Assembly: GCA_965203135.1 (NCBI GenBank) | Contig: CBDBBO010000001.1 | Span: 1,678,071 to 1,742,070, forward strand | Source of the DNA: Dehalococcoidia bacterium | GTDB taxonomy: Bacteria; Chloroflexota; Dehalococcoidia; Lucifugimonadales; CATOSD01 | Direction of reading: 5' to 3' | DNA length: 64,000 nucleotides | Translations under genes and position numbers: made by a program | Shown: positions 12,290-39,006 of the stretch, piece by piece | Layout of the letters: every line of letters starts with the position of its first letter | Position numbering within the stretch: the stretch's first letter is position 1 | The notes under the pieces: generated by a model | Database searches by the model: none | What the model was told of the DNA's origin: nothing | Seen by the model: the letters and a program-made list of their open reading frames with translations, nothing else

Positions 12290-12726
12290 GAAAAAATCTG
12301 CTCGATTCTGCTACATTCCGCTCATTCCGTAGCTGGGCGGCCCGATGTTTCTGTCACTTTCTGTGAGCCAGGTTGTTAAGGTTCGTCACGCGCATTGCGC
12401 AGGATGTGGCAGAACGCGACCCGTTCGACAAGCTCAAGGCAGGCTCCGGCCCTATTCCGCGACTGGCGGTGATGGAGTCTATGGGATGGATAGTAGCACG
12501 TGCGTGCTATAGAATCAAGAGGGTGGTTCAGGGCTGCGGGAGGGGGTCGGTCACTCGCGTGGGCGACGGTAGTACGAATGTGCATATATTGCAATCAATA
12601 AGGTTGGCGAAAATGCGGTTTTGGGGCGGATTTGTGGGGAGAAATGGCACACGAATGGGAACCGGTGGGACGTGGATGAGAATGGGTGTGGCGTTTGGGT
12701 TACGCGGTTGGGGTGCGATGGGACAG
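12290..12726 (-). repeat. Left copy of a roughly 450-500 bp imperfect inverted repeat (partner at 31031-31530), carrying a promoter-like TTGATT-N17-TACTAT on the minus strand
   Basis: The reverse complement aligns collinearly with 31031-31530. Shared perfect blocks include 'cgcgtaacccaaacgccacac' (21 nt), 'caccctcttgattctatag' (19 nt), 'gtcgcgttctgc' and 'ccgcccagctacgg'. The alignment was done by eye. Confidence 0.65.
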
Positions 12727-12971
12727 CGGTCTTGAGCCTTCAGATGTGAAGGCACACTTGTTTTGGGGCGAGGAGTCAGTATGTGATAGCCCTGCCCGTG
12801 TTAGGCCCTATTGGTGCTATGTTGCTACAGTTTGGAATATGTTAATCTGGTGGCCGCAAAGTGGTCATGTATGCACTTCCAGTCTAATTCATAACTGTAG
12901 TGCTGACATAGGAAAGCAAAGTTATGAATAGGGTACCTGTGGATAGAGAAGAGGTGTGGTAAGGGGCGCCA

Positions 12972-13997
12972 ATGGATCAAGAACGGGCGAAAAGGACCGT
13001 CGGCTGCTTGTTCAGTGGGATGGGAGGATTCGCCTCTGGGCTTGCAAAGTCGGGCTTTGAGATCAGTTGGGCTACCGACAACGACAAGTACGCCTGCGCG
13101 ACATTCCGACACCGATTCCCAGACGTAAACTTGGTCGAGAAAGATGTTCGCAGTCTGTCTGTGTTTGGCGACAGCCTAACTGCGGTTGATGTGCTGACCG
13201 CCGGATTCCCCTGCCAAAGTTTCTCTCAAGCAGGTACGCGACGAGGCCTAGATGACCCACGTGGCAGACTATTTTATGAGATACCGCGTCTCCTGTCAGA
13301 GTACGAACCGGAAGCGCGGCCTCCTCTGGTAATCTTGGAGAATGTGCCGCACCTACTTTATGGAGCAGGAAAGGCTTGGTTCGATAGCGTCCGCCGTGCA
13401 ATTCGGCGTGCGGGGTATTGGTTCAGGGAGCAGTCGTGCTGGACGGTAAACGTGAAAGACGCAACAAGTCTTCCCCAAGACCGAGAACGACTGTTTTTGG
13501 TCGCCGCATCGCGCGCACACTTCAGCTTCAACCCCTTCACTCCTCCCTCTTTGGCCGACACTGGAAACGGGCATCTAAGGGCCCTCAGCGAATTTGTTGA
13601 CCGCACCAAGCCAGGGGCCCCAGAGGCATACTTGCCCAAGGACAACCGCTATTACAAGATGATCGACCGAGAGATGGCATCTGGGGAGTCAGTTTCAAAT
13701 ATATTCCAGTTGAGGCGGTCATACGTCCGTGAAAAGAAAAATGGGTTGTGTCCAACGCTTACTGCCAACATGGGCATTGGAGGACACAATGTGCCATTTG
13801 TGCGAGACTCTTGGGGAATTCGCCGGCTCAGCGTAGAAGAGGTGGCTCGACTACAAGGATTCGACGAGACGGAGTCGCTCTTCCCTGACATGCCGGCGGC
13901 AGAGAAGTATCGACTCTTAGGTAACGCGGTGTGTGTCCACCTAGCTCGTCTAGTGGGGCAGGCCTGCGCAGATATTCTTGACGGGCAAACAGCATGA
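12972..13997 (+). CDS. dcm: DNA (cytosine-5)-methyltransferase
   Basis: Canonical C5-MTase motifs are present. These are I 'FSGMGGF', IV 'GFPCQSFS', VI 'ILENVPHLL', VIII 'QDRERLFLV', IX 'RRLSVEEVARLQGF' and X 'GNAVCV'. Confidence 0.93.
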   Translation: MDQERAKRTVGCLFSGMGGFASGLAKSGFEISWATDNDKYACATFRHRFPDVNLVEKDVRSLSVFGDSLTAVDVLTAGFPCQSFSQAGTRRGLDDPRGRLFYEIPRLLSEYEPEARPPLVILENVPHLLYGAGKAWFDSVRRAIRRAGYWFREQSCWTVNVKDATSLPQDRERLFLVAASRAHFSFNPFTPPSLADTGNGHLRALSEFVDRTKPGAPEAYLPKDNRYYKMIDREMASGESVSNIFQLRRSYVREKKNGLCPTLTANMGIGGHNVPFVRDSWGIRRLSVEEVARLQGFDETESLFPDMPAAEKYRLLGNAVCVHLARLVGQACADILDGQTA

Positions 13998-15949
13998 CTT
14001 CAGACAATTCCGGCATCGGCTGGAACTTTCCACCCACCAATGGAGGGCGCGTCGACGGCTTTAACGATCCCGGTATCGCGCACTTTAGCGGTTCTCCGTA
14101 CTCTAGCCTCGCTCGAGAGACAATACAGAACTCGCTAGATGCGAGAGATAGATATGATCAGCCCGTGCATGTGTCTTTTGAAATGGTCGAGTTGCCGCCG
14201 GCCGACATGGGGCGAGCCGAACTTTCCCTCGCTATAGACGCTAGTCGCGGAGAGGTAGAGCCTGATGACCCTGCGCAACCTGAGCTAATCCGTGCTCAAG
14301 AAGTGCTCGCAAGGGAGAGGGTTCCGTTCTTACGTGTATCGGACCGGAATACGACCGGATTACGAGATAAGCAATGGCGGACTCTGGTCAAAATGCAGGG
14401 CGCGAGCTTTAAGGCAGACCTTGAAGGTGCGGGAGGCTCCTTTGGCATAGGCAAATACGCACCATTTGCCGTATCGACACTCCGCACAGTGTTCTATTGG
14501 ACTTGTTTTAGGGAGAACGGCAGGAATGTCGAACGGTTCCAGGGCAAGTGCGTTCTTATGTCGCACCATCAAGCAGGTACAGAAGTTCAGGGTACCGGGT
14601 TCTTCGGTCTGAGGGACGGCTGTGTCGAAATGACGACCTCCATTCCCGAGTGCTTCCGGCTGACTACGCAAGATTCGCTTCCTATACACGGCACGAGTCT
14701 CGCCATCGCTGGCTTCATGGAAGCCCAGGATTGGCGCAGACGGGTTGCCTCAAGTGTAATCGAGAACTTCTTCTATGCTATTGACCGGGGTCAACTTACG
14801 GTACTCATTGAGCCTGGTGACAAAGACGGAGACTTGTTTGAAATTGATGACGCTACCCTAGGTGATTGCTTCGCGACACTGCTGGACGACAACTCAGACT
14901 CCGAGGAAGACCAGGCTGAAGGGGGAACATCACTTAGTCAGGCTAGAGCGTTCTGGGAGATTTCAGACGCCGATGTGGTCCCAATCGAGAAACAGGACCA
15001 AGACCTCGGACACTGCCGGCTATGGATTCGTGTTCAAGATGGCCTCCCGAGCAGAGTAGGGTTTGTAAGGCGGACAGGCATGCTTGTCACGACGCAACAA
15101 CGCAACTTGATTCGCTTCCCAGGGTTTCGGGACTTCGCGGCTCTGTGCGTCTTTGAGGACCCTGCCGGCAACGAACTCTTGCGACGAATGGAGAACCCAA
15201 GACATGATCAATTCGAGCCGGACCGACTGCCGGAAGCAGATAGACAGCGAGGCAGACGGGCTCTGAAACGAATTACAGATTGGATACGGAGTGAAGTGCG
15301 AAAGTTAGCAGGTCCGCCTGAGGGTGGCAGATCCACAGTGCTGTCGGAGCTAGCTGTCTACCTGCCAGACTTGCAGCCTGATGAACCGTTTGAAGATGCT
15401 GGCAGCGAGAACGGAGGCACGGGGGAACCGGGTTTTGGGGAACGTGTCACCCTTGCACTTAAGCCCGTTCGTCGACCTACTCCGCCTACTTTACCCGCTA
15501 GCGAAGAATCGAACGAGGACGGAGACAGCCCCGGGGACGACGTAGGCAATGCTGGCGGGGGAGGTACTGGTGAAGGGGAAGGTGGAGGGGGCACAGACGG
15601 TACTGGTGAAGGGGAAGGTGAAGGCGGTACAGGGAGCCGTGGCGGCCGTCGAGCCAGAGTGAGAGGGATTCCCATATCTGGAGTCCGCATTTTGTCGATA
15701 CCTGGCCAAGAGAACTGCTACCAATTGAGCTTTCGCTCCAGCACCGGCGGTGAGGCGAGTCTTGAATTAGAAGAAGCCGGAGACTCGACTACTATCCGGC
15801 GCGACGACATCCGGCCTGTTGCTGAAGGTGTCTCCCTTGGGTGTGTACCACTGTTGGAAGGTCAGAGAACAACGATAGACATCACCGCCGACAGACCTAT
15901 CGGAGAAAGGGCGTGGCGTCTACGCGCCGTAGCCAACGACGGCGACTAA
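13994..15949 (+). CDS. GHKL-superfamily ATPase-like protein (paraMORC/MutL-like head) with a large uncharacterised C-terminal region and a Gly/Glu-rich linker
   Basis: ATGA overlap with dcm. N-box 'RETIQNSLDA', G1-like 'VSDRNTTGL' and G2 box 'GGSFGIGKYAPF' are present. The remaining roughly 450 aa are unassignable by eye. Confidence 0.7.
   Translation: MTSDNSGIGWNFPPTNGGRVDGFNDPGIAHFSGSPYSSLARETIQNSLDARDRYDQPVHVSFEMVELPPADMGRAELSLAIDASRGEVEPDDPAQPELIRAQEVLARERVPFLRVSDRNTTGLRDKQWRTLVKMQGASFKADLEGAGGSFGIGKYAPFAVSTLRTVFYWTCFRENGRNVERFQGKCVLMSHHQAGTEVQGTGFFGLRDGCVEMTTSIPECFRLTTQDSLPIHGTSLAIAGFMEAQDWRRRVASSVIENFFYAIDRGQLTVLIEPGDKDGDLFEIDDATLGDCFATLLDDNSDSEEDQAEGGTSLSQARAFWEISDADVVPIEKQDQDLGHCRLWIRVQDGLPSRVGFVRRTGMLVTTQQRNLIRFPGFRDFAALCVFEDPAGNELLRRMENPRHDQFEPDRLPEADRQRGRRALKRITDWIRSEVRKLAGPPEGGRSTVLSELAVYLPDLQPDEPFEDAGSENGGTGEPGFGERVTLALKPVRRPTPPTLPASEESNEDGDSPGDDVGNAGGGGTGEGEGGGGTDGTGEGEGEGGTGSRGGRRARVRGIPISGVRILSIPGQENCYQLSFRSSTGGEASLELEEAGDSTTIRRDDIRPVAEGVSLGCVPLLEGQRTTIDITADRPIGERAWRLRAVANDGD
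15563..15620 (+). repeat. In-frame 22-nt perfect repeat at a 36-nt period encoding the G/E-rich linker
   Basis: 'ggtactggtgaaggggaaggtg' occurs at 15563-15584 and 15599-15620. The peptide is 'GTGEGEGGGGTDGTGEGEGEGGTG'. Confidence 0.85.
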
Positions 15950-15951
15950 CC

Positions 15952-16809
15952 ATGAGGTTTGATCCAGGAAAGGCTTGGCCCCATCCCGTGCTCCGTCCGC
16001 CAACTTATGGAGACGATTATCCGCGTGCGGAGTTTGAGGTTGAAATAGAAGTTGAGCGTATCCAAGGCAGCACATCCGTAGACGTCACAGCAGAGTTTGA
16101 GCTCAGCGACCAAGACCTGCTCGGTCTCGTTGTGGATGGAGCGGCTCAGTATGTCTTGCTAATCAAGGCGTCAAGAACCCACTTCCGAGAGATGATCTCT
16201 GCGGAAGAACCGCTCATTGAGAGGATCTTTTCGGGAGGGGACTTGTCTGGTCGTGTGGAGTTCGCGCCCTTTCTGATATGCACAAAGGATCTGACCGACT
16301 TTCGTGCTGAAGGGTGGCACTCAGATTTCACAGGGCGGACATTTAACATATCCGCTGGCTCAGTGCTGGCAGAGGATGTGCCGAAGGACTATTGGGTCGA
16401 CACGGCTGATGAGGCGCCCCTCGGTTCGATCTTTGGGCACAAGTTCCGGCCGGACGTGCCCAACGGGCGCTGGGAACTTGAGCTGGCGGAAGAGCGGGTC
16501 TGGATCGTGATGTCCAAATCGGATTCGGAGTTGTACGCGGAGGCGCGAGAGCGGGCTAGACGTAGTCCTGAAGGTCAGAATTTGATGAATGGCCTGTACT
16601 TGCCTGCTCTGATTGCAGTACTGAACGAAGTGGACAGGAACATCGGAGACTACAGTGACTACCGATGGTTCGCGTCGCTTGACCATCGCCTACAGACGGT
16701 TGATTGCAAGGAGTTGGGGGTCTCGGACGCCAATCGTGTGGTCGATGCTCAAAGAGTCCTCGACATGCCCTTCACCAAGATGCCCATGATTGCAGAAGCA
16801 GGGACTTAG
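15952..16809 (+). CDS. Hypothetical protein (285 aa), no recognisable family
   Basis: The ATG at 15952 lies 2 nt after the upstream stop and has normal amino-acid composition. The track ORF start at 15841 overlaps the upstream gene and was rejected. I could not find a clean PD-(D/E)xK, HNH or P-loop motif. Confidence 0.7.
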   Translation: MRFDPGKAWPHPVLRPPTYGDDYPRAEFEVEIEVERIQGSTSVDVTAEFELSDQDLLGLVVDGAAQYVLLIKASRTHFREMISAEEPLIERIFSGGDLSGRVEFAPFLICTKDLTDFRAEGWHSDFTGRTFNISAGSVLAEDVPKDYWVDTADEAPLGSIFGHKFRPDVPNGRWELELAEERVWIVMSKSDSELYAEARERARRSPEGQNLMNGLYLPALIAVLNEVDRNIGDYSDYRWFASLDHRLQTVDCKELGVSDANRVVDAQRVLDMPFTKMPMIAEAGT

Positions 16810-16814
16810 GACGT

Positions 16815-17576
16815 ATGCCCAACCTGAGGTATTACACGTCTGCGGTCGTTGAGGACCTTCGAACAAGAGTCGCGGAGCACCTTGACTGGTACTATGCACC
16901 AGAGGGCAGTCCTTTTTCTGTTGCGCCTGTAGGAGGCGTAAGGGAATCGAGCATAACAGCCCCTAAGCTCGCTGGGCTCTTGGCTGTGAACGAAGAGCGC
17001 CCATTTGCCACTGACGTCGAAAACGCACTCGCAGTGTATGAGGCTCTATCCGCATTGACGCCGCACCAAGCCTCAATAGAGCGGATGTGGGTGTATCTGT
17101 GCCACCACGATTGCCCTCAGTACGTCGCCGCGCGTTGGCTGAACCGACGGCCAGAGTCGGATGAGGACGCAGTTCGCGAGGTTCGGAATCACTTTTTTGC
17201 GGTCGGCAATCGAGCGCTCATACGGGATAATGCGGTCTCAAGGCTTTGGTGGCTCGGAAAAATCGCCTATGACGTTGATCCTAACGCCCCGCGTGAGTTT
17301 CTGACGATTCTCCTCCACCGGCAGGATGTGCGTTCTGCTTTAATTGAGCGTCCGTCAGTGTCGACGAATCGGCGAGTGTTGCGCGGAATATATGAGGTAA
17401 TGGCGGAGTACTGGTCAGACGGCGGAGCACTGTTCACTCGGGAGATTTTTCGGTCGTGGATGATCGCTTTGAACCGTCGCGGCGGAGTAATTCTCTTAGA
17501 CGCACTCCCCGAAGACGCGTTGAGACAGCTATTGCGTGAAGAGGCGCGTGTGGCTATAGAAGAGTATTCGGCTTAG
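16815..17576 (+). CDS. Hypothetical protein (253 aa), no recognisable family
   Basis: The ATG at 16815 lies 5 nt after the upstream stop. The protein is helical-looking ('ERMWVYLCHHDCPQYVAARWLNRR', 'AVSRLWWLGKIAY'). No catalytic motif was recognised. Confidence 0.7.
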   Translation: MPNLRYYTSAVVEDLRTRVAEHLDWYYAPEGSPFSVAPVGGVRESSITAPKLAGLLAVNEERPFATDVENALAVYEALSALTPHQASIERMWVYLCHHDCPQYVAARWLNRRPESDEDAVREVRNHFFAVGNRALIRDNAVSRLWWLGKIAYDVDPNAPREFLTILLHRQDVRSALIERPSVSTNRRVLRGIYEVMAEYWSDGGALFTREIFRSWMIALNRRGGVILLDALPEDALRQLLREEARVAIEEYSA

Positions 17577-17590
17577 ATTAGTAGGCTGCA

Positions 17591-18043
17591 TTGACTGATA
17601 ACCTGAGTCCTGAAGACCGTTCATGGTGCATGTCGCGGATACGCTCTCGCGATATGAAACCAGAGTTGGCCGTCCGCTCGATGGTACATCGACTTGGATA
17701 TAGGTTCCGCCTGCATAGGCGCGATTTGCCCGGTTCACCCGACTTGGTGCTGCCACGCCATGGGGCGGTGATTTTCGTCAATGGTTGTTTCTGGCACTGG
17801 CACCCCGATCCTGACTGTCCGATCGCAGGGTTGCCAAAATCGAATCTGGACTACTGGGAACCAAAGTTGACTCGAACCCGGATCAGAGACCAAGAACATA
17901 CAGACAATCTTGAGGCAGATGGGTGGAGGGTATTGGTAGTTTGGGAATGTCAGTTGAGGAGCCCTGTTGCAGCCCTTGAGATGATAGCCGAGTTCCTCGA
18001 GGCTACAGACGCCAAGATTCTCAGGCCTGTAGCAGTACGGTGA
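17591..18043 (+). CDS. vsr: Very-short-patch repair endonuclease
   Basis: 'SPEDRSWCMSRIRSRDMKPELAVRSMVHRLGYRFRLHRRDLPGSPDLVLPRHGAVIFVNGCFWHWH' is the canonical Vsr pattern. TTG start lies 14 nt after the upstream stop. Confidence 0.92.
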   Translation: MTDNLSPEDRSWCMSRIRSRDMKPELAVRSMVHRLGYRFRLHRRDLPGSPDLVLPRHGAVIFVNGCFWHWHPDPDCPIAGLPKSNLDYWEPKLTRTRIRDQEHTDNLEADGWRVLVVWECQLRSPVAALEMIAEFLEATDAKILRPVAVR

Positions 18044-18165
18044 CCGCTCTCGGCAAGAACCCCTTCGACCCTAGATAAGCTGCTCGCGTTGACACCGTGC
18101 GGAGTGCCGCCTTACACTCGCGGCATCTTGCGGCGGTGTTTGCCGCTGCCCAGGAGGCTACCGAT

Positions 18166-19218
18166 ATGGCCAGTGAAATGACCGGATTGGCGCAGACGGT
18201 TACCGGCCCCGTAGACCCCAGTGAGCTTGGCGTTACGCTTACGCATGAGCATCTGCTGGTGGACGGCACGCACATGTCCGAGCCCCCGGAGGAGGCGAGC
18301 GCGAGGGAGTTTTACAACCGGCCGCTGTCCATGGAGATCATGGGGTACATCCGGCACCACGGGATGCTCAATGTCAACAACGGTCACGTGAACAGCGTGG
18401 AGACGGCCATCGACGAGACGATGCTGTACAAGCAGTACGGCGGCGACACCATCGTGGACGCCACGAGCCTGGGCATAGGCCGCGATCCGGTCGGGCTGGC
18501 GCGCATATCGCGGGCCACGGGGGTGAACGTCATCATGGGCGGCTCGCACTACGTGGACCAGGCGCACCCGGAGGACATGGACGAACGCTCGGAGGACGAA
18601 ATCTTCGGGAAGATCGTCGAGGACGTGATGGTGGGCGTGGACGGCACCGGCATCAAGTGCGGCATCATCGGCGAGGTGGGCTGCACGTGGCCGCTCACGG
18701 ACAACGAACGCAAGGTGCTGAGGGCGTCGGCTCGCGCCCAGCAGGCCACCGGAGCGCCCATCCTGATTCACCCCGGACGTGACGAGGTGGCGCCGCTGGA
18801 GATAGTCGAGGTGCTGAGCGAGGCGGGGGCTGACCTGGGCAACACAATCGTCGGCCACCTGGACCGCACCATCTTCGAGCGGCGGACGCTGAAGATGCTG
18901 GCCGAGAGCGGATGCTACATGGAATGGGACCTGTTCGGGCAGGAGCAGTCGTACTATTCGGCCAACACGAACATCGACATGCCGAGCGACGCCAAGCGGA
19001 TGGACGATATCGCGTGGATAAGCTCGGAGGGCTACGGCGACAAGATAGTGGTGGCGCACGACATCTGCCAGAACCACCGGCTGGTGAAGTACGGCGGCCA
19101 CGGCTACTTCTACATCCTGAACCACATAGTGCCCCGGATGAGGGACCGCGGTTTTTCCGGCGAGGCTATCGACAAGATACTCGTCGACAATCCGAAGGAG
19201 GCGCTGGCTTTCCGGTAG
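18166..19218 (+). CDS. Phosphotriesterase-related (PTER/PHP family) amidohydrolase-fold metal hydrolase
   Basis: 'GVTLTHEHLLVD' is present with later His/Asp ligand motifs ('ILIHPGR', 'VVAHDI'). CAGGAGG lies 8 nt upstream of ATG 18166. Confidence 0.88.
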   Translation: MASEMTGLAQTVTGPVDPSELGVTLTHEHLLVDGTHMSEPPEEASAREFYNRPLSMEIMGYIRHHGMLNVNNGHVNSVETAIDETMLYKQYGGDTIVDATSLGIGRDPVGLARISRATGVNVIMGGSHYVDQAHPEDMDERSEDEIFGKIVEDVMVGVDGTGIKCGIIGEVGCTWPLTDNERKVLRASARAQQATGAPILIHPGRDEVAPLEIVEVLSEAGADLGNTIVGHLDRTIFERRTLKMLAESGCYMEWDLFGQEQSYYSANTNIDMPSDAKRMDDIAWISSEGYGDKIVVAHDICQNHRLVKYGGHGYFYILNHIVPRMRDRGFSGEAIDKILVDNPKEALAFR

Positions 19219-19233
19219 GGTTGCGGCTTGGGC

Positions 19234-19677: not shown

Positions 19678-19971
19678 GGCGATCCTCGACAGGCGTTCGC
19701 CCGTAGTGTGGGCAGGCTACCATGCGGCCTGTGCAGGGGCGTAGGCTAACGGGGGCGTGGTACTCGGGGCTTTCACCCTGACCCATTCGGCAGGCTCAGG
19801 GCAGGCACACTAGATTCCTCGGCTACGCTCGGAATGGCAGAGGTGGGAGGGGGAAGGGAACAAACGGCTTGTTTCCCATGCGGGCCGGGCTGTTGTACAC
19901 TACGCCGCAGCCGTTGCGTTGGCCCTGTTTTGTATTTGGACAGTATTCGTAGCACCCGACGAGGCGGAGCG

Positions 19972-21402
19972 ATGGACTTCGACGCATACGACCTCGACCC
20001 CACCATATATGACGAGATGTTCCTGCCCGGCGGCGAGCCGCGCGAGCACGTCCGGCTTCTCCACGACGAGATGCTGGAACTCACCGCCGAGGACCTGGAG
20101 AGCATCCAGGAGAGGGTTACCCGCTCGTTCTCCACCGAGGGCATTACGTTCACGGTGTACGGAGACGACGAGGCGGACGAGCGGATCATCCCAATCGACT
20201 GCGTTCCGCGCGTGCTTTCGGGCGAGGAGTGGAACGGCCTGGAGGCCGGGCTGACCCAGCGGCTCAAGGCGCTCAATATGTTCCTGGAGGACGCCTACGG
20301 CCCGGCGCGCATAATCGAGGACGGCGTGATTCCGGTGGACGTGGTGAGGGGCTGTCCCCAGTACCGCCTGGAGATGCGCGGGTTCTCCGCGCCCCATGGC
20401 ACGTGGGTCGCCATCTGCGGCACCGACATCGTGCGCACCAACGACGGCTTCATGGTGCTGGAGGACAACCTGCGCGTGCCGTCCGGGGTGTCCTACATGC
20501 TGGCGAACCGCAAGGCCGCCAAGGCGAGCCTGCGCAGACTGTACCGCAACTCCCGCGTGCGCGACGTGGAGCACTACGGCCGGATGCTGGTGGAGACGCT
20601 GCGGGAGCTCGCACCGCGTGGGCAGTCCGATCCTTCCATCGCGCTGCTGACGCCGGGCGTGTACAACTCCGCCTTCTACGAGCACATGTTCCTGGCCCAC
20701 GAGCTGGGCGCGGAGCTGGTGGAGGGCCGCGACCTGCTGGTGAACGACGGGTTCGTTTACATGCGCACCACTTCCGGTCTGAGGCGGGTGGACGTGATAT
20801 ACCGCCGCGTGGACGACGACTTCATCGACCCGCTGGTGTTCCGTCCCGACTCGCTGCTGGGCGTGCCGGGGCTGATGCACGCCTACAAGCAGGGCAACGT
20901 GACACTGGTGAACGCGCCGGGCACGGGCGTGGCCGACGACAAGAGCGTGTACGCCTACGTGCCCGACATGATCCGCTACTACCTGTCCGAGGAGCCGCTG
21001 CTGGCCAGCGTGGAGACTTACCTGTGCCGGCGGCCGGAGGACCTGGAGTACACGCTGGACAACCTGGCGAACCTGGTGGTCAAGCGCGTGGGCGAGTCGG
21101 GCGGCTACGGGATGCTGATAGGCCCCCACGCCACGCCCGAGGAGCGGGATGAGTACGCGAAGGGGGTACGGGCGGACCCGGCGGACTTCATTTCGCAGCC
21201 GGTGCTGTCGCTGTCGCGCTCGCCGTGCGTCATCGACGGCCAGTTCGAGCCGCGCCACGTGGACCTGCGCCCGTTCGTGCTGCACGGACGGGAGACGCGC
21301 ATAGTGCCGGGCGCGTTCTGCCGGGTCGCGCTGCGCAGGGGCAGCCTGGTGGTGAACTCCAGCCAGGGCGGCGGCGGCAAGGACCTGTGGGTGCTGGAGT
21401 AG
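19972..21402 (+). CDS. Circularly permuted type-2 ATP-grasp protein (DUF404/DUF407)
   Basis: 'YDEMF...PREH...', 'ITFTVYGDDEADERIIPIDCVPRVL', 'VLEDNLRVPSGVSYMLANR' and 'VNAPGTGVADDKSVYAYVP' are characteristic. The start is at MDFDAY (ATG 19972) with an upstream GAGGCGGAG. Confidence 0.88.
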   Translation: MDFDAYDLDPTIYDEMFLPGGEPREHVRLLHDEMLELTAEDLESIQERVTRSFSTEGITFTVYGDDEADERIIPIDCVPRVLSGEEWNGLEAGLTQRLKALNMFLEDAYGPARIIEDGVIPVDVVRGCPQYRLEMRGFSAPHGTWVAICGTDIVRTNDGFMVLEDNLRVPSGVSYMLANRKAAKASLRRLYRNSRVRDVEHYGRMLVETLRELAPRGQSDPSIALLTPGVYNSAFYEHMFLAHELGAELVEGRDLLVNDGFVYMRTTSGLRRVDVIYRRVDDDFIDPLVFRPDSLLGVPGLMHAYKQGNVTLVNAPGTGVADDKSVYAYVPDMIRYYLSEEPLLASVETYLCRRPEDLEYTLDNLANLVVKRVGESGGYGMLIGPHATPEERDEYAKGVRADPADFISQPVLSLSRSPCVIDGQFEPRHVDLRPFVLHGRETRIVPGAFCRVALRRGSLVVNSSQGGGGKDLWVLE

Positions 21403-21425
21403 GGATTCTTTCGCCCTCACCCTAA

Positions 21426-22967: not shown

Positions 22968-23069
22968 GGGGATTATCCACGAAGGGCACGAATAAGTGGT
23001 CAGATCAAAGACGCGACAAACGCGCTCTTGTTCAGTCTTGATAAGAAGTAGGGTAGAGACGACACGAAA

Positions 23070-23897
23070 ATGCCCCAAAGTTACACACTGCACGAAGATT
23101 ACCTGCCCTGTGGGGTTTGTGGCGTAGACATATCTGACCAACCCCGCGGAGATAAGCGCTGCCGCGCCTGCGCACGGATGTATCCATTTGTCTGTCTAGA
23201 GTGCGGTGCAAACACGTCACAATTGACTCCGTGGTGGAATCGGTCAAATCGGTTAAAGCTGTCCCCCAGCGATCTGGAATACGAGGAGGTTATGCTGCAA
23301 AGCCCTATGTACTGTCCTATGTACTGTCCTGAGTGTGCCCAAAAGAACCCACACTTCTGTCTTTACTGCGGAGCAGACATGTCTGGCGAACACCGAGAAT
23401 TTGTGCGCTGTAGCGGATGCAGCCGTAGCCGCGTGGCAATGCCCAAGTTCGTTCAAGGGAGATCCATCCGATCCGGTAGCTTTTGTACAGCCTGTGGAAA
23501 ACGCCTTCCCTATTCGCGGAGAGCCAGTGTGGACTGTCTAGAATGTGAGCAGAAACGGGAGAGCCAGCCAGCCCCCCGCTTTTGCTTACTCTGTGACGCG
23601 GACATAGCGTACCTACACGATGACACTAGGCACTGCCCCCAGTGCGACGGTAAGCGTCGGGAAGACGCTGTAGACAAGTGGCACGAGTGGGTGGACGGGT
23701 GGCATGACGTCAGTATAGAAGTGGATGTGGCATATTATAAAATACTGAGATCCTGCATAATCGAAGGCTGTACGCCGTGGTTCGACCCGAGCCACGAGGA
23801 AGAGGCAGGGCACAGGCCAATGGATGAGATTGAAATGGCGAAAGCAACAAAGGAAATACTTGAGCTTGTGAAAGTAAGAAATGCAGCCCAAGCCTAG
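23070..23897 (+). CDS. Cys-rich multi-zinc-ribbon protein (about 10 CxxC pairs), orphan
   Basis: Repeated 'C-x2-C ... C-x2-C' knuckles are present (CGVC/CRAC, CLEC, CPEC/CLYC, CSGC, CTAC, CLEC, CLLC, CPQC). The gene is visibly AT-richer and sits between DUF1800 and DUF1501 genes, which are normally adjacent. Confidence 0.65.
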   Translation: MPQSYTLHEDYLPCGVCGVDISDQPRGDKRCRACARMYPFVCLECGANTSQLTPWWNRSNRLKLSPSDLEYEEVMLQSPMYCPMYCPECAQKNPHFCLYCGADMSGEHREFVRCSGCSRSRVAMPKFVQGRSIRSGSFCTACGKRLPYSRRASVDCLECEQKRESQPAPRFCLLCDADIAYLHDDTRHCPQCDGKRREDAVDKWHEWVDGWHDVSIEVDVAYYKILRSCIIEGCTPWFDPSHEEEAGHRPMDEIEMAKATKEILELVKVRNAAQA

Positions 23898-23952
23898 ACT
23901 CTGACCTGGTGGCGGCGTAGACATCTCGCATAGGAATGGAGGTCCATCCGAT

Positions 23953-25089: not shown

Positions 25090-25100
25090 AGGGGGTTCCC

Positions 25101-26114
25101 ATGGGCAGACCATACGCTTTGCTGAGATCGGGATTTCCGTACCACATGACGCTGGGGATGCGGCGCGTGACCTCCAACGCCGTGGACGTGGCGCTGGGTG
25201 ACGGCGGCATCGTGTACGTGCTGTGCCGCGGCGGGCTGGGCACGGAGATACGGGTCATCAACTTCGACGACGAGAACCTGGGCACCATTGGCGGCGCGGG
25301 CGGGGGCGAGGGCCAGTTCACCTGGCCGGCGTGCCTGATACGGGACGCGGAGGAGAACCTGTACGTGTCCGACGAGGCGCTGCACCGCGTATCGGTGTTC
25401 AGCAAGGAGCGCGAGTTCCTGGCAAGCTGGGGCGAGCACGGCAGCGGAGAGGGACAGCTCGACAGGCCGTCGGGCATCGCGTTCGACGCCGACGAGAACG
25501 TGTACGTGTCGGATACGCTGAACCACCGCGTGCAGAAGTTCACCAAGGAGGGCGAGTACCTGGGCGGTTGGGGTAGCCGGGGCAGTGGCGAGGGCGAGTT
25601 CGACATGCCGTGGGGCATCACGGTGGACGAGCTGGGAGACGTGTACGTGGCGGACTGGCGCAACGACCGGGTGCAGAAGTTCTCGGCGGACGGTGAGTTC
25701 CTGGCGGTGTTCGGCGAGTCCGGCTGCGGCGACGGCCAGTTCAGCCGGCCGTCGGGCGTGTGCGTGGACGCGGATGGGGACGTGTACGTGGCGGACTGGG
25801 GGAACGACCGGGTGCAGCTCTTCAACGAGCACGGCCAGTACGTGGAGAAGTTCATCGGCGACGCCAGCCTGTCCAAGTCCGGCTTGCAGTACGTGCTGTC
25901 CAACCAGATAACGCTGAGGCTGCGGGACATGAGCCGGCTGGAGGCGGGTCGGCGACTGCGCGGTCCGATCAGCGTGCGGGTGGACGACGAGGGGCGGCTG
26001 TACATCCCGGACTTTGGTTCGCACCGGGTCCAGATCTACAAGAAAGAGGCGTACCCGCTCACCGAGAGCCAGATAGCGCCGCTGCCGCGCAACCCGATGT
26101 TGTTGACGACGTAG
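25101..26114 (+). CDS. NHL-repeat beta-propeller protein
   Basis: There are five to six repeats of 'G-x-G-x-G-(Q/E)-(F/L)-x-x-P-x-G-(I/V)-x-V-D-x-x-G-x-(V/L)-Y-V-(A/S)-D-x-x-N-(D/H)-R-V-Q-x-F'. The ATG at 25101 lies after GGGGG. Confidence 0.88.
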   Translation: MGRPYALLRSGFPYHMTLGMRRVTSNAVDVALGDGGIVYVLCRGGLGTEIRVINFDDENLGTIGGAGGGEGQFTWPACLIRDAEENLYVSDEALHRVSVFSKEREFLASWGEHGSGEGQLDRPSGIAFDADENVYVSDTLNHRVQKFTKEGEYLGGWGSRGSGEGEFDMPWGITVDELGDVYVADWRNDRVQKFSADGEFLAVFGESGCGDGQFSRPSGVCVDADGDVYVADWGNDRVQLFNEHGQYVEKFIGDASLSKSGLQYVLSNQITLRLRDMSRLEAGRRLRGPISVRVDDEGRLYIPDFGSHRVQIYKKEAYPLTESQIAPLPRNPMLLTT

Positions 26115-26212
26115 GGGGTTGGCAGACGGCACTTCTGTAGCGGGCGGGTTTGATACCCGTCCGTTGTTGCGTCAAATGAAACGGACTGGCTAGTCGATTA
26201 GGTGAGACGGGA

Positions 26213-29200
26213 ATGTCCAAGCGTAGCAGGCGCAAGAAACAGCGACGCAAGGAAAAGCGGCGCAATGCTCCAGAGGTGCGGCTCGAAAGGGAGCCGTCGG
26301 TGAATTCGGGGCCACAGGCTTCGACCTCGCCGATTGGGAACGTCCGACGGCCGATTTTGAACCCATGGGGCTCGCCAGTGAGGTCTCAACCCAGTTCGAC
26401 CGAGAAGACCCAACGGAAGGACTGGACTCCCATGCGGCACGCCAGCGCGGACTTGGCCTACACCGACCGGAAAGGCCCGACGGAAGAACTGGACCCGATA
26501 CCGCCAACCATTGAGGACTCGACTCAGACTGAATGGGCAGGACCGTCAGGCCCGATCGGCGTATACATCGACGAGGAACGGCGAGGGACACTCAGCGCCT
26601 ACCGCAGCCAACCGAACCTTGTAGACGAACACGCCAATCACGAGCAAGACACGGCCCGGGGCGGCTACGCTTATCGGCAGCTGTTCGAGTTGGTGCAGAA
26701 TAGCGCCGACGCCCTGGCTGATTTGGACGGCGGGCGCATCGAATTGCGCCTGACCTCCGACTATCTCTACTGCGCCGATGATGGACGGGCCATCGACTCG
26801 GACGGCGTGAGAGCCCTCATGTTTTCCCACCTGTCTCCCAAGCGCGGAACAGCGGAAATCGGGAGATTTGGGCTAGGATTCAAGTCTGTCCCTGGCGTCA
26901 CCGATTCCCCCGAGTTTTTCAGCCGCTCCGGTTCATTCCGGTTCGACGTCGAAAGAGCGCGGGAAGAGATACGACGTGTCGCCCCTGACGCCGAGCGCTA
27001 CCCAGCGCTGCGGCTGCCTGTTGCTATCGACCCACTGCCGGAGATGGAGGCCGACACAGTTCTACGCGATTTGGCCGATTGGGCTACCAACATCGTGCGC
27101 CTGCCGCTCAAGCCAGGGGCCAGGGAGTCCCTGTTGCAGCAGGCCAAGGACTTCCCGCCGGAGTTTCTGCTGTTCGTCGAGCACGTGTCGGAACTGAACA
27201 TCCAAGCCGATAGCGATGCCCAGCGCTCCATCAGGCTGAGGCGCCTAGGCGACTTCCGTAAGCCCGCTAACGGTGATCAGCGACCTTCTATGAAAGTGGC
27301 AGTGCCGAAGCTGATCCGCGAAAGCGATTTCCATGTGCTCGCGGACGGTGATAAGGAAGCTCAGTGGATGGTCGTTAGTACCGTTCACAAGCTTTCCGAG
27401 GACGCTAGGGCCGACAGCCGAAGCCTCGATGACGCCACGGAAGTAGAGATCAAGTGGGCGGCCCCTGTAGAAAGGTTGAATGAGCCTGGCCGCTTCTGGG
27501 CATTCTTTCCCACGCAGACTTCGAGCTTGCTCGCCGGCATACTTAACGCGCCGTGGAAGACAAACGAGGACCGGCAGAACCTGCTGCCTGGGGTCTACAA
27601 CGACGAGCTGATTGACGCGGCGGCGGCAATGGTGGCCAAAGCTGTGCCACGGTTGTCCAACAAGAGCGTACCCGCTCGCCATCTTGACGCACTGCCTCGT
27701 CGAGAAGAAGCCGGTGACAGTGAACACAGCAAGAGACTTCGGGATCAACTGCAGGCGAACCTGCGTGGTGTGAGAATCGTTCCAGACCAGTTGGGCATAC
27801 TCCACAGGCCCACCGAGCTCATGTACGCTCCGACCGAAATCACTGACCCGAGACGGGGGGCTGCACGTGCGCTCGGGAGGTGGGGCGAGTACGAGGGCCG
27901 ACCCAAGAACTGGGCGCACCACAGCGCGCTCACTCGTAACAGGTTAGCGGCCATCAGATCGGTCATGCCAAACAGGGTTGTTCGTAGTTCCTACGGAGGG
28001 GTGACGTTTACGACTCAGCATGGTCCCGTGAAACTCGAGGTGGCAACGGTGGATGAGTGGCTGCAAGCGTTGGTAGACGATGCGGATATCCCGGAGAGGC
28101 ATCTCGAGAGATCGGCCACCGCGATCCAGACTGCGGCGCTGATACCAGAAGCGATCCGGCAGGGCAATAGCCTCGGTCGAATAGTGCTTACGACTAGGGG
28201 TAGCTGGGTCGAACCTGATCCCGAATCCGTGTTTCTCGGCGGCGGGTTTGGCGGCGGCTCAGCCACGGTGGTGCATCCGCAACTGGAGGCCGATCCGGAA
28301 ACACTGAGCGCGCTGAAGGCGCTCGGCATAGGGCCCGCTTCAGCGGAGACTGAGCTCAGTGCTGCGGCCGATAAACTGCTGGTTTACAGACCGTACTACA
28401 GGGGAACGCCGCCAGATGGCGACTGGCTCAGTTTCTGGCGTCTTGCACGGAACGTTGAGCATGACACCGCTTATGAGATCATTCAAGCCCATGAGCACTG
28501 GCAGAGTTCGCTGCGTGTTCGCACAATCGCAGAGGTGTGGCGCTCCCTGAACCATGCCTTGCTACCCGGACCAATCATTCCGGCAGACGGTAGTGGCGAT
28601 CCCGACATGGCAATAGACATACGCTTTCACGAGGCGGATCTTTCCTTGCTGAGGCAGCTTGGTGCGGTGGACACGCCCTCTGCGGGGCGCGAACTGTCAC
28701 TGGAGCATATGTGGAGATTTCGTGGGAAGTGCAGAAGCACTTTCATTAGATCCGCAGAGAGTGAAGTAGGGCATTCACCGCGTGACCATATGCTCAACTT
28801 TGAGATTCTCGCTACCACAAGCGGTCCTTTGGATGTGTTAGAGCTTCTTTCCGAATACCAGAACGCGGAGTACACGTGGCGTCTCCTCAGCTTGCGCGAC
28901 ACCTACTCACAGTGGACGATGCGTCATGACACCCGAGACATTTACCCGCCCATGGATTTCGATTCGCCAGCACTGGAAGTGCTTCGGGAACACGGGCGGA
29001 TCGTTACGGATGAGGGCATTCGACCGCTCTCTGACGGGCTGGGCAATCCACCAAAAGACATTGCAGTGTTGCGCAAGCTGCTTTCGCACCCTCAAGCCGA
29101 CAGAATTAGAGAAGCCTTCGGACTGCCGGACGACGAGGAGTTACCGGTCGAGCCGCTTGACGAGGACGCGCCCATACCGCTGCTCGACGAGTGGCCAGGT

Positions 29201-31021
29201 CTCAAGCCTCACATCACGGTACAGCAAGGCAGTCTCGATTTGGTTCGCTGTGACGGGTTTCGCACATTTGGCGGGGTTGAACCGGAATGTGTCCTGAGGG
29301 GCGGTATCGTGTACGTGGTTCGCCAATACGAGGAGGAGCGTGAGCTTCGGTCTGTGCTGCGGGAGATAGGCGTCAGTCTCAGAGAGAGCGAGATTAGACG
29401 GGTGCTCCTGGGTATCACTCCAGAAGACATACAGAAGGCACGGGCCAAGGTCAGGAACTGTGACACCGACGAGGAACGTCTTCTGGGGGCAGTGGGTGAA
29501 CGAGCATTGAGGCGTGGGTTGCCGTCGGGGCTTCTCGCGATACTCGAAGAAGAGAGCCTCGGAGCGCTTCCGGGTGTTGAGGTTGCGAAAGCCGCTATCG
29601 CCACGTATCACACCGGCGCGCTGCGAGAGTACCGCTACGCGATAGAGCACCTGGATCCTCCACGCCAGTGGGCAGGGCGATCCAGCGCAATCCAGTTCGT
29701 GCGCTCTCTCGGCTTCAGCGATGAGTGGGCCGGCGAATCAAACTCTCGGCAAGAGCCGTTCCTGGAAGTCGACGGCCCTCTCTCGCTTCCCAAACTCCAT
29801 CCATACCAGCGTGTCGTCGTTGACAACACGAGAAGCCTGCTGCGCTCCGGCGGCGCACTCGGAGAACGACGAGGTATGATAAGCATGCCCACAGGCTCGG
29901 GCAAGACTCGCGTCGCGGTGCAAGCGATCGTCGAGGCTATGCGGAAGGACGGGTTCAAGGGCGGAGTCATCTGGGTTGCCGACCGCCGGGAACTCTGTGA
30001 TCAGGCGGTGGAGGCTTGGAGGGAGGTATGGGCAAGCGAGGGCACTGAGAAGGCGCGGCTTCGAATCTCGAGGATGTGGGGAGGTCAGGCTAGACCGCGG
30101 CCAGACGCCGATATGCATGTTATTGTCGCGACGATTCAGACGCTTTACGCCAAGACCATGTCTCCGGGGAACGATTACGACTTTCTAGCAGACTTCAAGC
30201 TGCTTGTGTTTGACGAAGCCCACCGGTCAATATCGGCTTCATCTACCTCCGTAATGGAAGAATTGGGGCTGACACGGTGGCGAAGGGAGCATGAACCACT
30301 ACTCATCGGCCTGACCGCGACGCCGTACAGGGGGCGCGACGAAGATGAGACACGGCGGCTCGTGAATCGCTATGGACGGAACCGGCTGGACTCCGGTGCG
30401 TTCAAAAGCGACCGCCCGGAGGACGTGATATCGGAACTGCAATCCATGCGGGTGCTTGCGCGAGCCGACCACGACCTCATTGAGGGCGGCAAGTTTACAA
30501 TGTCTCCAGACGAGCTGAAGCAATCACTGGATACTCCTTGGTTGCCCCAAAGCGTCGAGAGCCGGATCGCCGGCAATGCCGAGCGGACCCGGCGCATCAT
30601 CAGAGCATACCATGAGCACATCGGCTCAGACTGGCCTGCCTTGGTGTTCGCGACGTCCGTAGAACACTCGCAGACGGTTGCTGCCTTGCTCACTCGCGAT
30701 GGAATCAGGGCCCGCGCCGTAAGCGCGAACACCGAAGCTTCAGTTCGTAGGCGAATCGTGGAAGAGTTTCGGGCGGGTGAAATCGACGCGCTGGTGAACT
30801 ACGGCATTTTCCGTGAGGGCTTCGACGCGCCGAGGACCAGGGCAATAGTTGTGGCTCGTCCGGTCTACAGCCCCAACCTGTACTTCCAGATGATTGGCAG
30901 GGGACTGAGGGGTGTGAAGAATGGTGGCAACGATAGGTGTCTCATCCTCAACGTGAGAGACAACATCGCCAACTACCGGCGCAGTCTGGCGTTTTCCGAA
31001 CTGGACTGGCTGTGGGACTGA
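26213..31021 (+). CDS. Giant (1602 aa) fusion protein: basic N-tail, sacsin-like GHKL ATPase domain, about 900 aa of unassigned sequence, and a C-terminal SF2 (DEAH, ResIII-like) helicase
   Basis: GHKL motifs are 'QLFELVQNSADALAD' (N box), 'CADDGRAID' and 'GRFGLGFKSV' (G2). Helicase motifs are 'LHPYQ', I 'SMPTGSGKT', II 'LLVFDEAHRS', III 'GLTATPYRG', V 'FREGFDAP' and VI 'QMIGRGLRG'. It is a single uninterrupted ORF with lower GC than its flanks by eye. Confidence 0.8.
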   Translation: MSKRSRRKKQRRKEKRRNAPEVRLEREPSVNSGPQASTSPIGNVRRPILNPWGSPVRSQPSSTEKTQRKDWTPMRHASADLAYTDRKGPTEELDPIPPTIEDSTQTEWAGPSGPIGVYIDEERRGTLSAYRSQPNLVDEHANHEQDTARGGYAYRQLFELVQNSADALADLDGGRIELRLTSDYLYCADDGRAIDSDGVRALMFSHLSPKRGTAEIGRFGLGFKSVPGVTDSPEFFSRSGSFRFDVERAREEIRRVAPDAERYPALRLPVAIDPLPEMEADTVLRDLADWATNIVRLPLKPGARESLLQQAKDFPPEFLLFVEHVSELNIQADSDAQRSIRLRRLGDFRKPANGDQRPSMKVAVPKLIRESDFHVLADGDKEAQWMVVSTVHKLSEDARADSRSLDDATEVEIKWAAPVERLNEPGRFWAFFPTQTSSLLAGILNAPWKTNEDRQNLLPGVYNDELIDAAAAMVAKAVPRLSNKSVPARHLDALPRREEAGDSEHSKRLRDQLQANLRGVRIVPDQLGILHRPTELMYAPTEITDPRRGAARALGRWGEYEGRPKNWAHHSALTRNRLAAIRSVMPNRVVRSSYGGVTFTTQHGPVKLEVATVDEWLQALVDDADIPERHLERSATAIQTAALIPEAIRQGNSLGRIVLTTRGSWVEPDPESVFLGGGFGGGSATVVHPQLEADPETLSALKALGIGPASAETELSAAADKLLVYRPYYRGTPPDGDWLSFWRLARNVEHDTAYEIIQAHEHWQSSLRVRTIAEVWRSLNHALLPGPIIPADGSGDPDMAIDIRFHEADLSLLRQLGAVDTPSAGRELSLEHMWRFRGKCRSTFIRSAESEVGHSPRDHMLNFEILATTSGPLDVLELLSEYQNAEYTWRLLSLRDTYSQWTMRHDTRDIYPPMDFDSPALEVLREHGRIVTDEGIRPLSDGLGNPPKDIAVLRKLLSHPQADRIREAFGLPDDEELPVEPLDEDAPIPLLDEWPGLKPHITVQQGSLDLVRCDGFRTFGGVEPECVLRGGIVYVVRQYEEERELRSVLREIGVSLRESEIRRVLLGITPEDIQKARAKVRNCDTDEERLLGAVGERALRRGLPSGLLAILEEESLGALPGVEVAKAAIATYHTGALREYRYAIEHLDPPRQWAGRSSAIQFVRSLGFSDEWAGESNSRQEPFLEVDGPLSLPKLHPYQRVVVDNTRSLLRSGGALGERRGMISMPTGSGKTRVAVQAIVEAMRKDGFKGGVIWVADRRELCDQAVEAWREVWASEGTEKARLRISRMWGGQARPRPDADMHVIVATIQTLYAKTMSPGNDYDFLADFKLLVFDEAHRSISASSTSVMEELGLTRWRREHEPLLIGLTATPYRGRDEDETRRLVNRYGRNRLDSGAFKSDRPEDVISELQSMRVLARADHDLIEGGKFTMSPDELKQSLDTPWLPQSVESRIAGNAERTRRIIRAYHEHIGSDWPALVFATSVEHSQTVAALLTRDGIRARAVSANTEASVRRRIVEEFRAGEIDALVNYGIFREGFDAPRTRAIVVARPVYSPNLYFQMIGRGLRGVKNGGNDRCLILNVRDNIANYRRSLAFSELDWLWD

Positions 31022-31030
31022 CCAAAACCC

Positions 31031-31530
31031 CTGTCCCAAAGCATCCCCAATCGCGTAACCCAAACGCCACACACTTGCTCTTCCACAGGCCCACTGCCGC
31101 CACCCATTTGCGCTACTCTGCCACACAAATTCCCGCTTTCAGGCCCACTCCCACCACATTATGTCAAGTGGCCCTGCCTCGCGCCGACAAGTCGGCGGAT
31201 TCACCCTGGCGTAGCGGCGAGTCTCCGACCCTTCCGTTCCGAGCGTAGCCGAGTAATCTGGGGCGTTTACCCGCGCCTATGACCCTGAACAACACCCTCT
31301 TGATTCTATAGTACGTGCGTGCTATTTTCTACTTGGCAGGCGCTGTGACCGCCCGTTGGCGGCATGGGAAAGCCAGAATCCGGCCCGGCACCACCGTCGC
31401 GTTCTGCGACATTATGGCGTCCTGCCAGTGACAGACCCTGACTCCGGTGTACTGCGCGAATGACAAGAGAATCGAACCGCCCAGCTACGGGATGCATCAA
31501 AATGCATCAGAATGCAACGAATTTTCGTAA
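31031..31530 (+). repeat. Right copy of the imperfect inverted repeat (partner at 12290-12726), carrying a promoter-like TTGATT-N17-TATTTT facing the amt gene
   Basis: It is collinear with the reverse complement of 12290-12726 (see that feature). It begins about 10 nt after the giant gene's stop. Confidence 0.65.
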
Positions 31531-39002: not shown

Positions 39003-39006
39003 GCGG

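Follow-up and report, generated by a model that had tools for sequence, protein, structure and literature searches.

The window considered here is a stretch of 64,000 nucleotides (nt) from a Dehalococcoidia bacterium (contig CBDBBO010000001.1 of assembly GCA_965203135.1, positions 1,678,071 to 1,742,070 of the forward strand). Within this window an imperfect inverted repeat brackets an 18-kb segment. The two repeat copies, or ‘arms’, are each found before a gene, the left one before that of a dienelactone hydrolase (DLH; 11424-12185, minus strand) and the right one before that of an ammonium transporter (amt; 31663-33222, plus strand). Both arms are members of a lineage-restricted family of non-coding, dispersed elements of 0.5-0.6 kb, which I name here ‘E’. 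E in turn is probably a promoter-bearing repeat, that is, a cassette which has been set before unrelated core genes.

The 3' end of the left copy of E faces DLH and its 5' end faces a dcm island, while the 3' end of the right copy faces amt and its 5' end lies at the stop of a giant helicase gene. These outward facings and inner ends were described as well in the original prediction, an earlier reading of this DNA, and are borne out by the gene coordinates. The left arm thus stops 217 bp short of dcm (12972) and the right arm begins 1 base past the giant gene's stop codon (31021). The copies and their longest invariant blocks are as follows:

12259-12755, minus strand: left copy of E (24-copy profile, nhmmer expect value 3.5e-97, profile positions 20-570)
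31022-31555, plus strand: right copy of E (24-copy profile, nhmmer expect value 1.3e-123, profile positions 50-568)
12686-12706, minus strand: invariant 21-mer of the upstream module, inside the YTCCCA array, left copy
31051-31071, plus strand: invariant 21-mer of the upstream module, right copy

That the arms form a collinear inverted repeat, as originally predicted, holds upon formal alignment. Locally, the reverse complement (rc) of 12293-12533 is 64% identical to 31283-31525 over 246 nt (expect value 1e-19), and rc 12630-12734 is 75% identical to 31023-31130 over 110 nt (expect value 2e-14), with these two blocks collinear. Arm against arm the Smith-Waterman score is 84, versus 21.8 +/- 2.3 (maximum 33) for 200 shuffles, i.e., the identity is far above chance level. 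The shared blocks named earlier are all found in the arms, and a repeat finder picks the arms up independently (as I1, I2 and I7). Conservation nevertheless is patchy, with near-identical blocks of 12-21 nt standing between unalignable stretches and indels, and with 21 nt (GTGTGGCGTTTGGGTTACGCG, 12686-12706) and 19 nt the longest exact runs in common. Within the window these two arms are the only matches of the E profile as found by nhmmer, and they resemble other members of the family as much as they do one another.

As to what lies between the arms, contigs with close amt homologues have the gene order DLH-[slot]-PTE-147-aa gene-CP_ATPgrasp-DUF1800-DUF1501-NHL-amt-Alpha-E, oriented as in the window. 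Five relatives (L024, L025, L026, L027 and L028) keep the window's gene order and orientation and have no E profile match even at an expect value of <= 10. In these E-less contigs the gap from NHL to amt is just 96-344 bp. The closest relative (L024, 93-95% identity) has 96 bp there versus window positions 26115-31619, with the window's excess consisting of the giant TmtA-like helicase gene plus the right E. L028, in turn, aligns up to window position 12278 and resumes at 18089, with 1.3 kb and two small genes found there. As the core genes between the arms are kept without the arms in five relatives, the 18-kb segment therefore is core synteny which holds two independent accessory slots. The inverted geometry of the arms is incidental: DLH and amt are transcribed apart, and their two E copies therefore form an inverted repeat by geometry alone. 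The slots and their contents, or ‘cargo’, are these:

12279-18088, no strand: left slot, as delimited against E-less relatives, with left E plus dcm, PDC-M33A/B/C and vsr
12490-18088, no strand: left promoter core and the left slot inward of it, one variable unit, the core (12490-12518) sharing this unit with the slot contents; GC 0.54-0.58
12972-13997, 13994-17576 and 17591-18043: left-slot cargo, i.e., dcm, PDC-M33A/B/C and vsr, respectively (Pfam, PADLOC)
26115-31021, plus strand: right-slot cargo, with the giant gene (26213-31021) combining a TmtA-like N-terminus with a ResIII/DEAD helicase (Pfam, PADLOC); absent from 5/5 E-less relatives

The candidate system PDC-M33 (13994-17576) is matched in PADLOC at 4e-99 (A), 6e-41 (B) and 2e-43 (C), with Pfam finding in its genes DUF6339 alone, in the third. 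The giant gene's product is 1602 aa in length. Its N-terminal region is TmtA-like (Tiamat; PADLOC 4e-50, residues 118-545), with a weak sacsin-type match the only one seen there with Pfam, and its C-terminus is a ResIII/DEAD/Helicase_C module. Slot contents differ among relatives. OZ242014.1, a 3.3-Mb chromosome of a Dehalococcoidia metagenome-assembled genome (MAG), has both E copies at orthologous sites but different DNA on their inner sides, that is, three other genes instead of the dcm island and an IS1595-like insertion sequence (IS) fragment where the window has the giant gene. Cargo of the slot between DLH and PTE (DLH|PTE) accordingly is dcm/PDC-M33/vsr for the window, P-loop genes for OZ242014.1, and HTH/DUF6932 for L028.

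E copies were gathered starting with an exact 20-mer common to both arms, which was scanned for in one genome per species. It was found at 23 loci, of which 11 are in OZ242014.1, 4 and 7 are in two further Dehalococcoidia MAGs, and 1 is an apparent chance match. The latter, from an Anaerovoracaceae (L014), was rejected as an E copy as it has the 20-mer alone in common, with ~1 chance match of a 20-mer expected in 1.2e12 positions. The genome of the window is ~92% identical to OZ242014.1, in which the left locus has L002 as its orthologue and the right locus has L010. When 24 copies are combined into a profile, full-length E (0.5-0.6 kb) is recovered in every locus (expect values of 1e-75 to 1e-164), the copies being spread over ~17 distinct loci, and further copies are present in close relatives from European Nucleotide Archive (ENA) assemblies (L030-L033). 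The 20-mer is absent from IMG/VR viral contigs, the promoter block and 20-mer are both absent from JGI metagenomes, and the right arm has no blastn match in PLSDB plasmids or INPHARED phages. Nor is E a ubiquitous short repetitive extragenic palindrome (REP) lacking any link to islands.

Orthologous right copies are ~89% identical versus 76-85% at fourfold-degenerate sites of the adjacent amt and Alpha-E genes, which is modest evidence for mild constraint, i.e., for E not drifting freely. Paralogous copies, by comparison, display conservation that is block-wise rather than uniform. The right window copy is the orthologue of the L010 copy (80-100% identity per 50-nt bin). The left copy instead is mosaic: its positions 301-450 resemble paralogues (74-94% identity) far more than they do the positional orthologue, L002 (38-48%), and the switch point is at ~12342. 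Recombination of E copies with one another thereby has, in part, been shown.

Reading toward the neighboring gene, E may begin with an optional 5' extension, one that is missing in both window copies and that carries a GTATC-N4-6-GATAC palindrome and a CCGGCT...AGCCGG hairpin. There follows an upstream module, C-rich and ~190 nt in length, which carries the invariant CCGCGTAACCCAAACGCCACAC. Relative to that block, [CT]TCCCA (YTCCCA) motifs are found at -8, +24, +45, +66 and +84, a spacing of ~21 bp which is equivalent to about two helical turns. The subsequent variable middle takes small REP-like hairpins, IS elements, and other DNA, including unrelated inserts of 1.3-1.4 kb in L006 and L018. 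The core which comes next is strictly conserved, CTCTTGATT-CTAYAGCACGNNCGTGC-TAnnnT, that is, CTCTTGATT-N17-(TGC)TAnnnT. It is followed by a conserved tail of ~215 nt with the blocks GTCGCGTTCTGC and GCCCAGCTACGGAATG and the terminus GCAGATTTTTCG. At the consensus ends there is a terminal inverted repeat, albeit an imperfect one (CCGAAAATCGTGTCTCAA versus rc CCGAAAAATCTGCTCAA), in which ~16/17 positions match with three indels. This match is weak in the left as well as the right window copy, and in many copies E runs on for 75 nt past the 5' repeat.

The core is promoter-like, and is conserved in a manner that points to selection. All of the intact copies (23/23) have a -35 of TTGATT (once TTAATT), a spacer of exactly 17 nt, and TGC before the -10, and in all of them the -10 keeps T1, A2 and T6 while its positions 3-5 vary. 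Judged as sequence, this is a strong likeness to what would be expected of a working sigma-70 extended -10 promoter. Conserved across copies as well, and overlapping the core, is the palindrome TAGCACG-N2-CGTGCTA, which is operator-like, i.e., placed as a repressor's operator would be. In every copy there is in addition a promoter-like site on the opposite strand, with TAGAAT, TATAAT or TAAAAT as -10 and TnGAnA as -35, and it is this inward site which a consensus promoter scanner selects in both arms. The outward TTGATT-N17-TA(C/T)T(A/T)T of the original prediction is present in each window copy (left 12518->12490, right 31300-31328). The sites in the window, along with promoters of the genes themselves, are the following:

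12490-12518, minus strand: outward promoter core, left, with -35 TTGATT at 12518-12513, 17-nt spacer, TGC, and -10 TACTAT at 12495-12490
31300-31328, plus strand: outward promoter core, right, with -35 TTGATT, 17-nt spacer, TGC, and -10 TATTTT
12494-12509, no strand: spacer palindrome, left, TAGCACG-TG-CGTGCTA, operator-like
31309-31324, no strand: spacer palindrome, right, TAGTACG-TG-CGTGCTA
12487-12515, plus strand: inward promoter-like site, left, over the outward one, TGGATA-17-TAGAAT (promoter scan)
31303-31331, minus strand: inward promoter-like site, right, over the outward one, TAGAAA-17-TAGAAT (promoter scan)
12247-12276, minus strand: predicted native DLH promoter, between E and DLH, TTGACG-18-TACACT (promoter scan); stretch kept in E-less L028
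31635-31663, plus strand: predicted native amt promoter, between E and amt, TTGCGA-17-TATACT (promoter scan); kept in E-less L024

Since native promoters are kept between E and the start codon, E therefore adds to, rather than replaces, the native control region. Position and orientation are similar elsewhere, with E lying immediately upstream of a core gene's native promoter and pointing at that gene. At 14/15 evaluable independent loci a gene of high GC3 (GC content at third codon positions) starts 37-343 bp past the 3' end of E and is co-oriented with it (two-sided binomial p ~0.001). These downstream genes are functionally unrelated: DLH, amt, a major facilitator superfamily (MFS) transporter, PspA, rhodanese and DapF, and also an Lhr-type helicase, a radical SAM protein, an alpha/beta hydrolase, a gamma-glutamyltransferase (GGT), and a ThDP enzyme.

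The most likely mode of action of E is that of a promoter cassette which is portable and bound by protein. The spacer palindrome would be the site of a dimeric regulator that gates the sigma-70-type promoter, with a second protein, or indeed the same one, binding the iterated upstream motifs. Copied before many unrelated genes, such a cassette would supply these genes with a common, extra regulatory input. Shown in part, in addition, is that foreign, low-GC, mostly defense DNA accumulates at the promoter-distal edge of E. As a cassette of this kind E may be viewed as a natural example, from an uncultured lineage, of one operator-controlled (putative) promoter cassette found before more than 12 unrelated genes, with promoter reuse serving as a route to regulon building. 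Among the possibilities raised originally was a dispersed promoter-bearing intergenic element that is either MITE-like (MITE, miniature inverted-repeat transposable element) or REP-like. The first part stands, as E is multi-copy, is found upstream of unrelated genes, and has the promoter hexamers in every copy. The second does not stand as well, as E is not REP-like in size and its MITE hallmarks are incomplete.

Several points weigh against seeing E as a promoter cassette of this kind. The two promoter directions are equally conserved, such that the outward direction is not established from the sequence alone. L008/L023 is the one exception in orientation, as there the gene beyond the 3' end of E is convergent and has its end, rather than its start, toward E. 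The native DLH and amt promoters, as predicted, pre-date E, which would not be needed for basal expression. The window copies are atypical as well, with weak iteron arrays in which [CT]TCCCA occurs once each versus 3-5 times in typical copies. Also to be considered is that neither a target-site duplication (at three loci) nor a cognate transposase (in ~250 kb of loci) was found for E, and that its terminal inverted repeats are imperfect. Lastly, copies were gathered via one invariant 20-mer, and the sample thus may over-represent those that are well conserved.

E may be compared with ‘putative mobile promoters’ (PMPs; Matus-Garcia, Nijveen, van Passel), which are homologous, non-coding sequences found upstream of unrelated, non-paralogous genes, within or between genomes, and which mostly have no Rfam match, with the route of their mobilization unknown (PMC3575422). 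PMPs are defined by >=80% identity over >=50 nt between regions upstream of non-paralogous genes (PMC3575422). By this operational definition E qualifies, with window positions 12292-12420 being 90-93% identical to copies found upstream of unrelated genes in L006, L007, L011 and L019. Most of E nonetheless lies >150 nt from the start codon, such that the original PMP window of -150 to -50 catches the 3' end of E only, and does so at some loci. PMPs, moreover, were defined on 100-nt windows and mostly as pairs, whereas E is a 0.5-0.6 kb family with at least 11 copies per genome. E also goes beyond PMPs in possessing defined modules, an operator-like palindrome, promoter-like sites that overlap on opposite strands, and a low-GC island at one of its flanks.

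Possible, although on the whole doubtful, is that E instead is a selfish, non-autonomous, MITE-like element, one with no regulatory role for its neighbors and with a core and motifs that are sites for transposase or host factors. E indeed is dispersed, non-coding, less than 0.7 kb in length, and polymorphic for presence versus absence between close relatives. GCA_964386475.1, for example, has no E between NHL and amt (NHL|amt; L024) but does have E between miaA and dapF (miaA|dapF; L030). The latter spacer is empty in L029, L034 and L035, has E alone in L009 and L031, has E at a contig end in L032, and in L033 is occupied by an IS together with the 3' half of an E in degenerate form. (In L032 the contig breaks, at its position 1, exactly inside the 5' extension of E, which is what would be expected of short-read assemblies where a junction is repeated or variable.) The terminal inverted repeat at the consensus ends, imperfect as it is, also fits a MITE, and the subterminal motifs, iterated at ~21 bp, resemble transposase-binding arrays.

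Against a MITE is that comparison of three loci (NHL|amt, DLH|PTE and miaA|dapF) with E-less alleles revealed no target-site duplication. The empty miaA|dapF allele, furthermore, holds 85 nt of other sequence, i.e., is no clean empty site. Given this combination, simple cut-and-paste transposition is not demonstrated. No autonomous IS or transposase with E ends was found in ~250 kb of fetched loci. The inserts of L006 and L018 were considered as a possible autonomous form of E, and rejected as such since they have only E parts in common, being otherwise unrelated to each other as well as to E. As for the IS elements that sit within E in L006, L018 and L033, these are passengers unrelated to it. 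Recent transposition, moreover, should result in uniform similarity, which is unlike the block-wise conservation seen. E is also aimed at the downstream gene at 14 of 15 loci, and its -10 varies exactly as a functional TAnnnT would.

E may be compared with known repeats as well. Correia elements (CREE) of Neisseria and promoter-carrying MITEs such as ERIC are, like E, dispersed intergenic repeats that are able to supply outward promoters, and E does have the MITE traits of being short, non-coding, multi-copy and dispersed. Correia elements, however, are ~100-155 bp in length, with clear terminal inverted repeats, TA target duplications, and hundreds of copies, whereas E is ~4x longer, is present as tens of copies at most, has imperfect terminal repeats, and lacks target duplication at the three loci. 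REPs are 20-40 nt palindromes which are mobilized by RAYT transposases. REP/REPIN sequences and E are both intergenic and multi-copy, but E is not palindromic overall.

Less probable still, and indeed unlikely, is that E is a landing pad or recombination anchor whose iteron-bearing distal edge recruits or exchanges defense cassettes, thereby making hot spots upstream of core genes. What suggests this is an asymmetry of flanks. The 2 kb that flank E average 0.595 GC at its 5' end versus 0.658 at its 3' end (Wilcoxon p = 0.010 for 13 independent loci), and low-GC cargo is found on the 5' side at 9/13 independent loci but never between E and its gene. This cargo is largely of a defense type, and includes dcm/PDC-M33/vsr, the TmtA-like helicase, a GHKL ATPase plus helicase, a methyltransferase, ParB_N, Smr plus HTH, and IS fragments. 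At NHL|amt and miaA|dapF combined, cargo is present in 4/6 alleles with E versus 0/8 without (Fisher p ~0.015, ignoring phylogeny); the alpha/beta hydrolase locus was left out of this test as its close homologues are on contigs that are too short. The E of miaA|dapF has no cargo in L009 and L031, but in L030 a ~950-bp island meets its 5' boundary exactly. The left window copy, furthermore, is a recombinant of paralogous variants (breakpoint ~12342).

Against E acting as a landing pad, its junctions with islands are ragged, with CCAAAA the point of contact in four copies and others having theirs 75 nt more distally, and IS and other DNA insert also in the middle of E. No integrase and no att-like direct repeats were found, the DLH|PTE slot of L028 is filled without any E, and the orientation of island genes relative to E is mixed. 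The 5'-side cargo may reflect a docking or recombination role but it may also reflect tolerance, that is, with insertions between E and the gene's promoter harmful, and those distal to E harmless, which by itself could explain the asymmetry.

Somewhat more doubtful again is the broader idea of E as a portable docking module, in which protein-bound iterons plus a regulated bidirectional promoter are copied before core genes, and in which the distal edge then captures or exchanges defense cassettes by targeted insertion or E-E recombination. Were this true, then one non-coding repeat would seed the defense-island hot spots of this Dehalococcoidia lineage and might transcribe into them. Should the link between E and defense genes hold genome-wide, then E would represent a sequence-defined marker for Dehalococcoidia defense hot spots along with a testable model of their origin. 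The integron platform (attI plus Pc) is like E in being a conserved, non-coding promoter platform beside variable, accessory, often defense genes. Unlike with integrons, no intI gene or attC-like sites were found by any copy of E, the cargo lacks a common recombination site, cargo orientation is mixed, there are many platforms per genome, and junctions are ragged. With defense-island hot spots that are flanked by core genes, one intergenic slot carries different defense systems in different strains. E slots differ from such hot spots generally in that many slots carry the same non-coding repeat, at the edge nearest the downstream gene's promoter.

Improbable is that E copies are non-coding RNA genes, whether for a ~215-nt small RNA from the outward promoter or a ~250-nt G-rich RNA from the inward one. 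E does possess its own conserved promoter-like site in either direction, with conserved blocks downstream of both. The outward unit, moreover, is closed by a T-run, and the inward end has hairpins (at 12736-12753 for the window; CCGGCT...AGCCGG elsewhere). Searching Rfam 15, though, gives no gathering-score match for E, with both arms having chance-level matches only at an expect value of <= 10. RNAalifold finds almost no shared structure for the tail and upstream module on both strands (consensus energies of -0.5 to -9.7 kcal/mol). A CCGCCC...GGGCGG hairpin varies via mismatches that are not compensated, and the right window copy has lost it, while folding of the 3' end of E shows no canonical terminator before the T-run. 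Clustering of all open reading frames (ORFs) of >=18 aa in 22 copies similarly found none kept in frame and length, with a hidden small gene or type I toxin in E rejected on that basis. As there is no conserved ORF, Rfam family or shared RNA structure, the conserved blocks therefore look like DNA-level, i.e., protein-binding, sites. Integration into a tRNA or tmRNA gene is ruled out as well, with neither found in the window.

Two further possibilities raised originally, namely that a single integrated element of 19 kb has the arms as its terminal repeats, or that they are a substrate for inversion of the segment, are so improbable that they may be set aside: although the arms are inverted and have accessory genes at both inner edges, the 9 kb of middle genes (PTE to NHL) are core synteny which five relatives have in the absence of arms, the two cargo blocks border different arms and vary independently, six related genomes (including OZ242014.1, which has both arms) are all in the window orientation, the arms are but 64-75% identical with exact matches of <=21 nt, and no recombinase or transposase gene or domain is found in 12.7-31.0 kb. 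What is removed with this is an attractive but wrong reading, i.e., of a 19-kb mobile or invertible defense island, which is replaced with two independent accessory slots in conserved synteny.

Other differences among relatives are seen within and near this segment. L025 has, at its positions 459-4391, a 3.9-kb island (GmrSD_N plus an N6/N4 methyltransferase) between the 147-aa gene and CP_ATPgrasp. Its window counterpart (19762-19960) is a 200-bp spacer that is full of REP-like repeats, making this a third variable slot, one without E. Positions 22996-23937, ~940 bp of low GC (0.53) with a double-zinc-ribbon gene (23070-23897), are a small insertion that is absent from L025-L028, where DUF1501 directly follows DUF1800. 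CP_ATPgrasp and Alpha-E genes usually are neighbors, but in the window and in all of the relatives they (19834-21402 and 33229-34197, respectively) are split by DUF1800, DUF1501, NHL and amt. Further along, 39006-40416 is missing from L024 and L025, with a FAD_binding_4 gene at the same position in L026-L028; this absence probably is a deletion in some relatives.

Small REP-like repeats (GAGCGTAGCC/GGCTACGCTC and GCCTGCCCTGAGCCTGCCGAA types) form a family of their own, which is present in the window at 1482-1523, 1625-1653, 8439-8448, 19778-19849, 31223-31278 and 12418-12444, sitting in intergenic spacers and inside of E copies. This family bears on the claim, also made originally, that motif-level fragments of the arms occur at 1376-1860, upstream of the HlyD gene. 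Most of those fragments belong to the separate, REP-like family, with the strings 'gagcgtagcc' and 'ttcgacaggctcag' being the small repeat that is found also at 19778-19849 and 31223-31278. What is left of the claim is three weak but collinear profile matches (promoter/palindrome, a REP-like stretch, and CCAGCTACGAAATG), with expect values of 0.003-0.26 within 800 bp, their order and orientation being those of E. Two features follow from these comparisons:

31223-31278, no strand: small REP-like insert of the CTCGGCTACGCTCGGAA type, within the right copy's variable middle, unrelated to E; matches 19792-19849 at 78%, and also 1493-1523
1345-1800, plus strand: possible E-like element, 3' half only and very degenerate, before the HlyD-like gene and co-oriented with it; not significant alone

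Elsewhere in the window, two arrays of 96-nt units (2429-2716 and 3407-3758) are in-frame, tandem coding repeats inside of an 822-aa gene (1997-4465), and an array of 141-nt units at 25265-25845 corresponds to NHL repeats. The only Rfam family match in the window is a T-box leader (RF00230) at 61717-62034, minus strand, which scores 110 bits versus a gathering threshold of 93.

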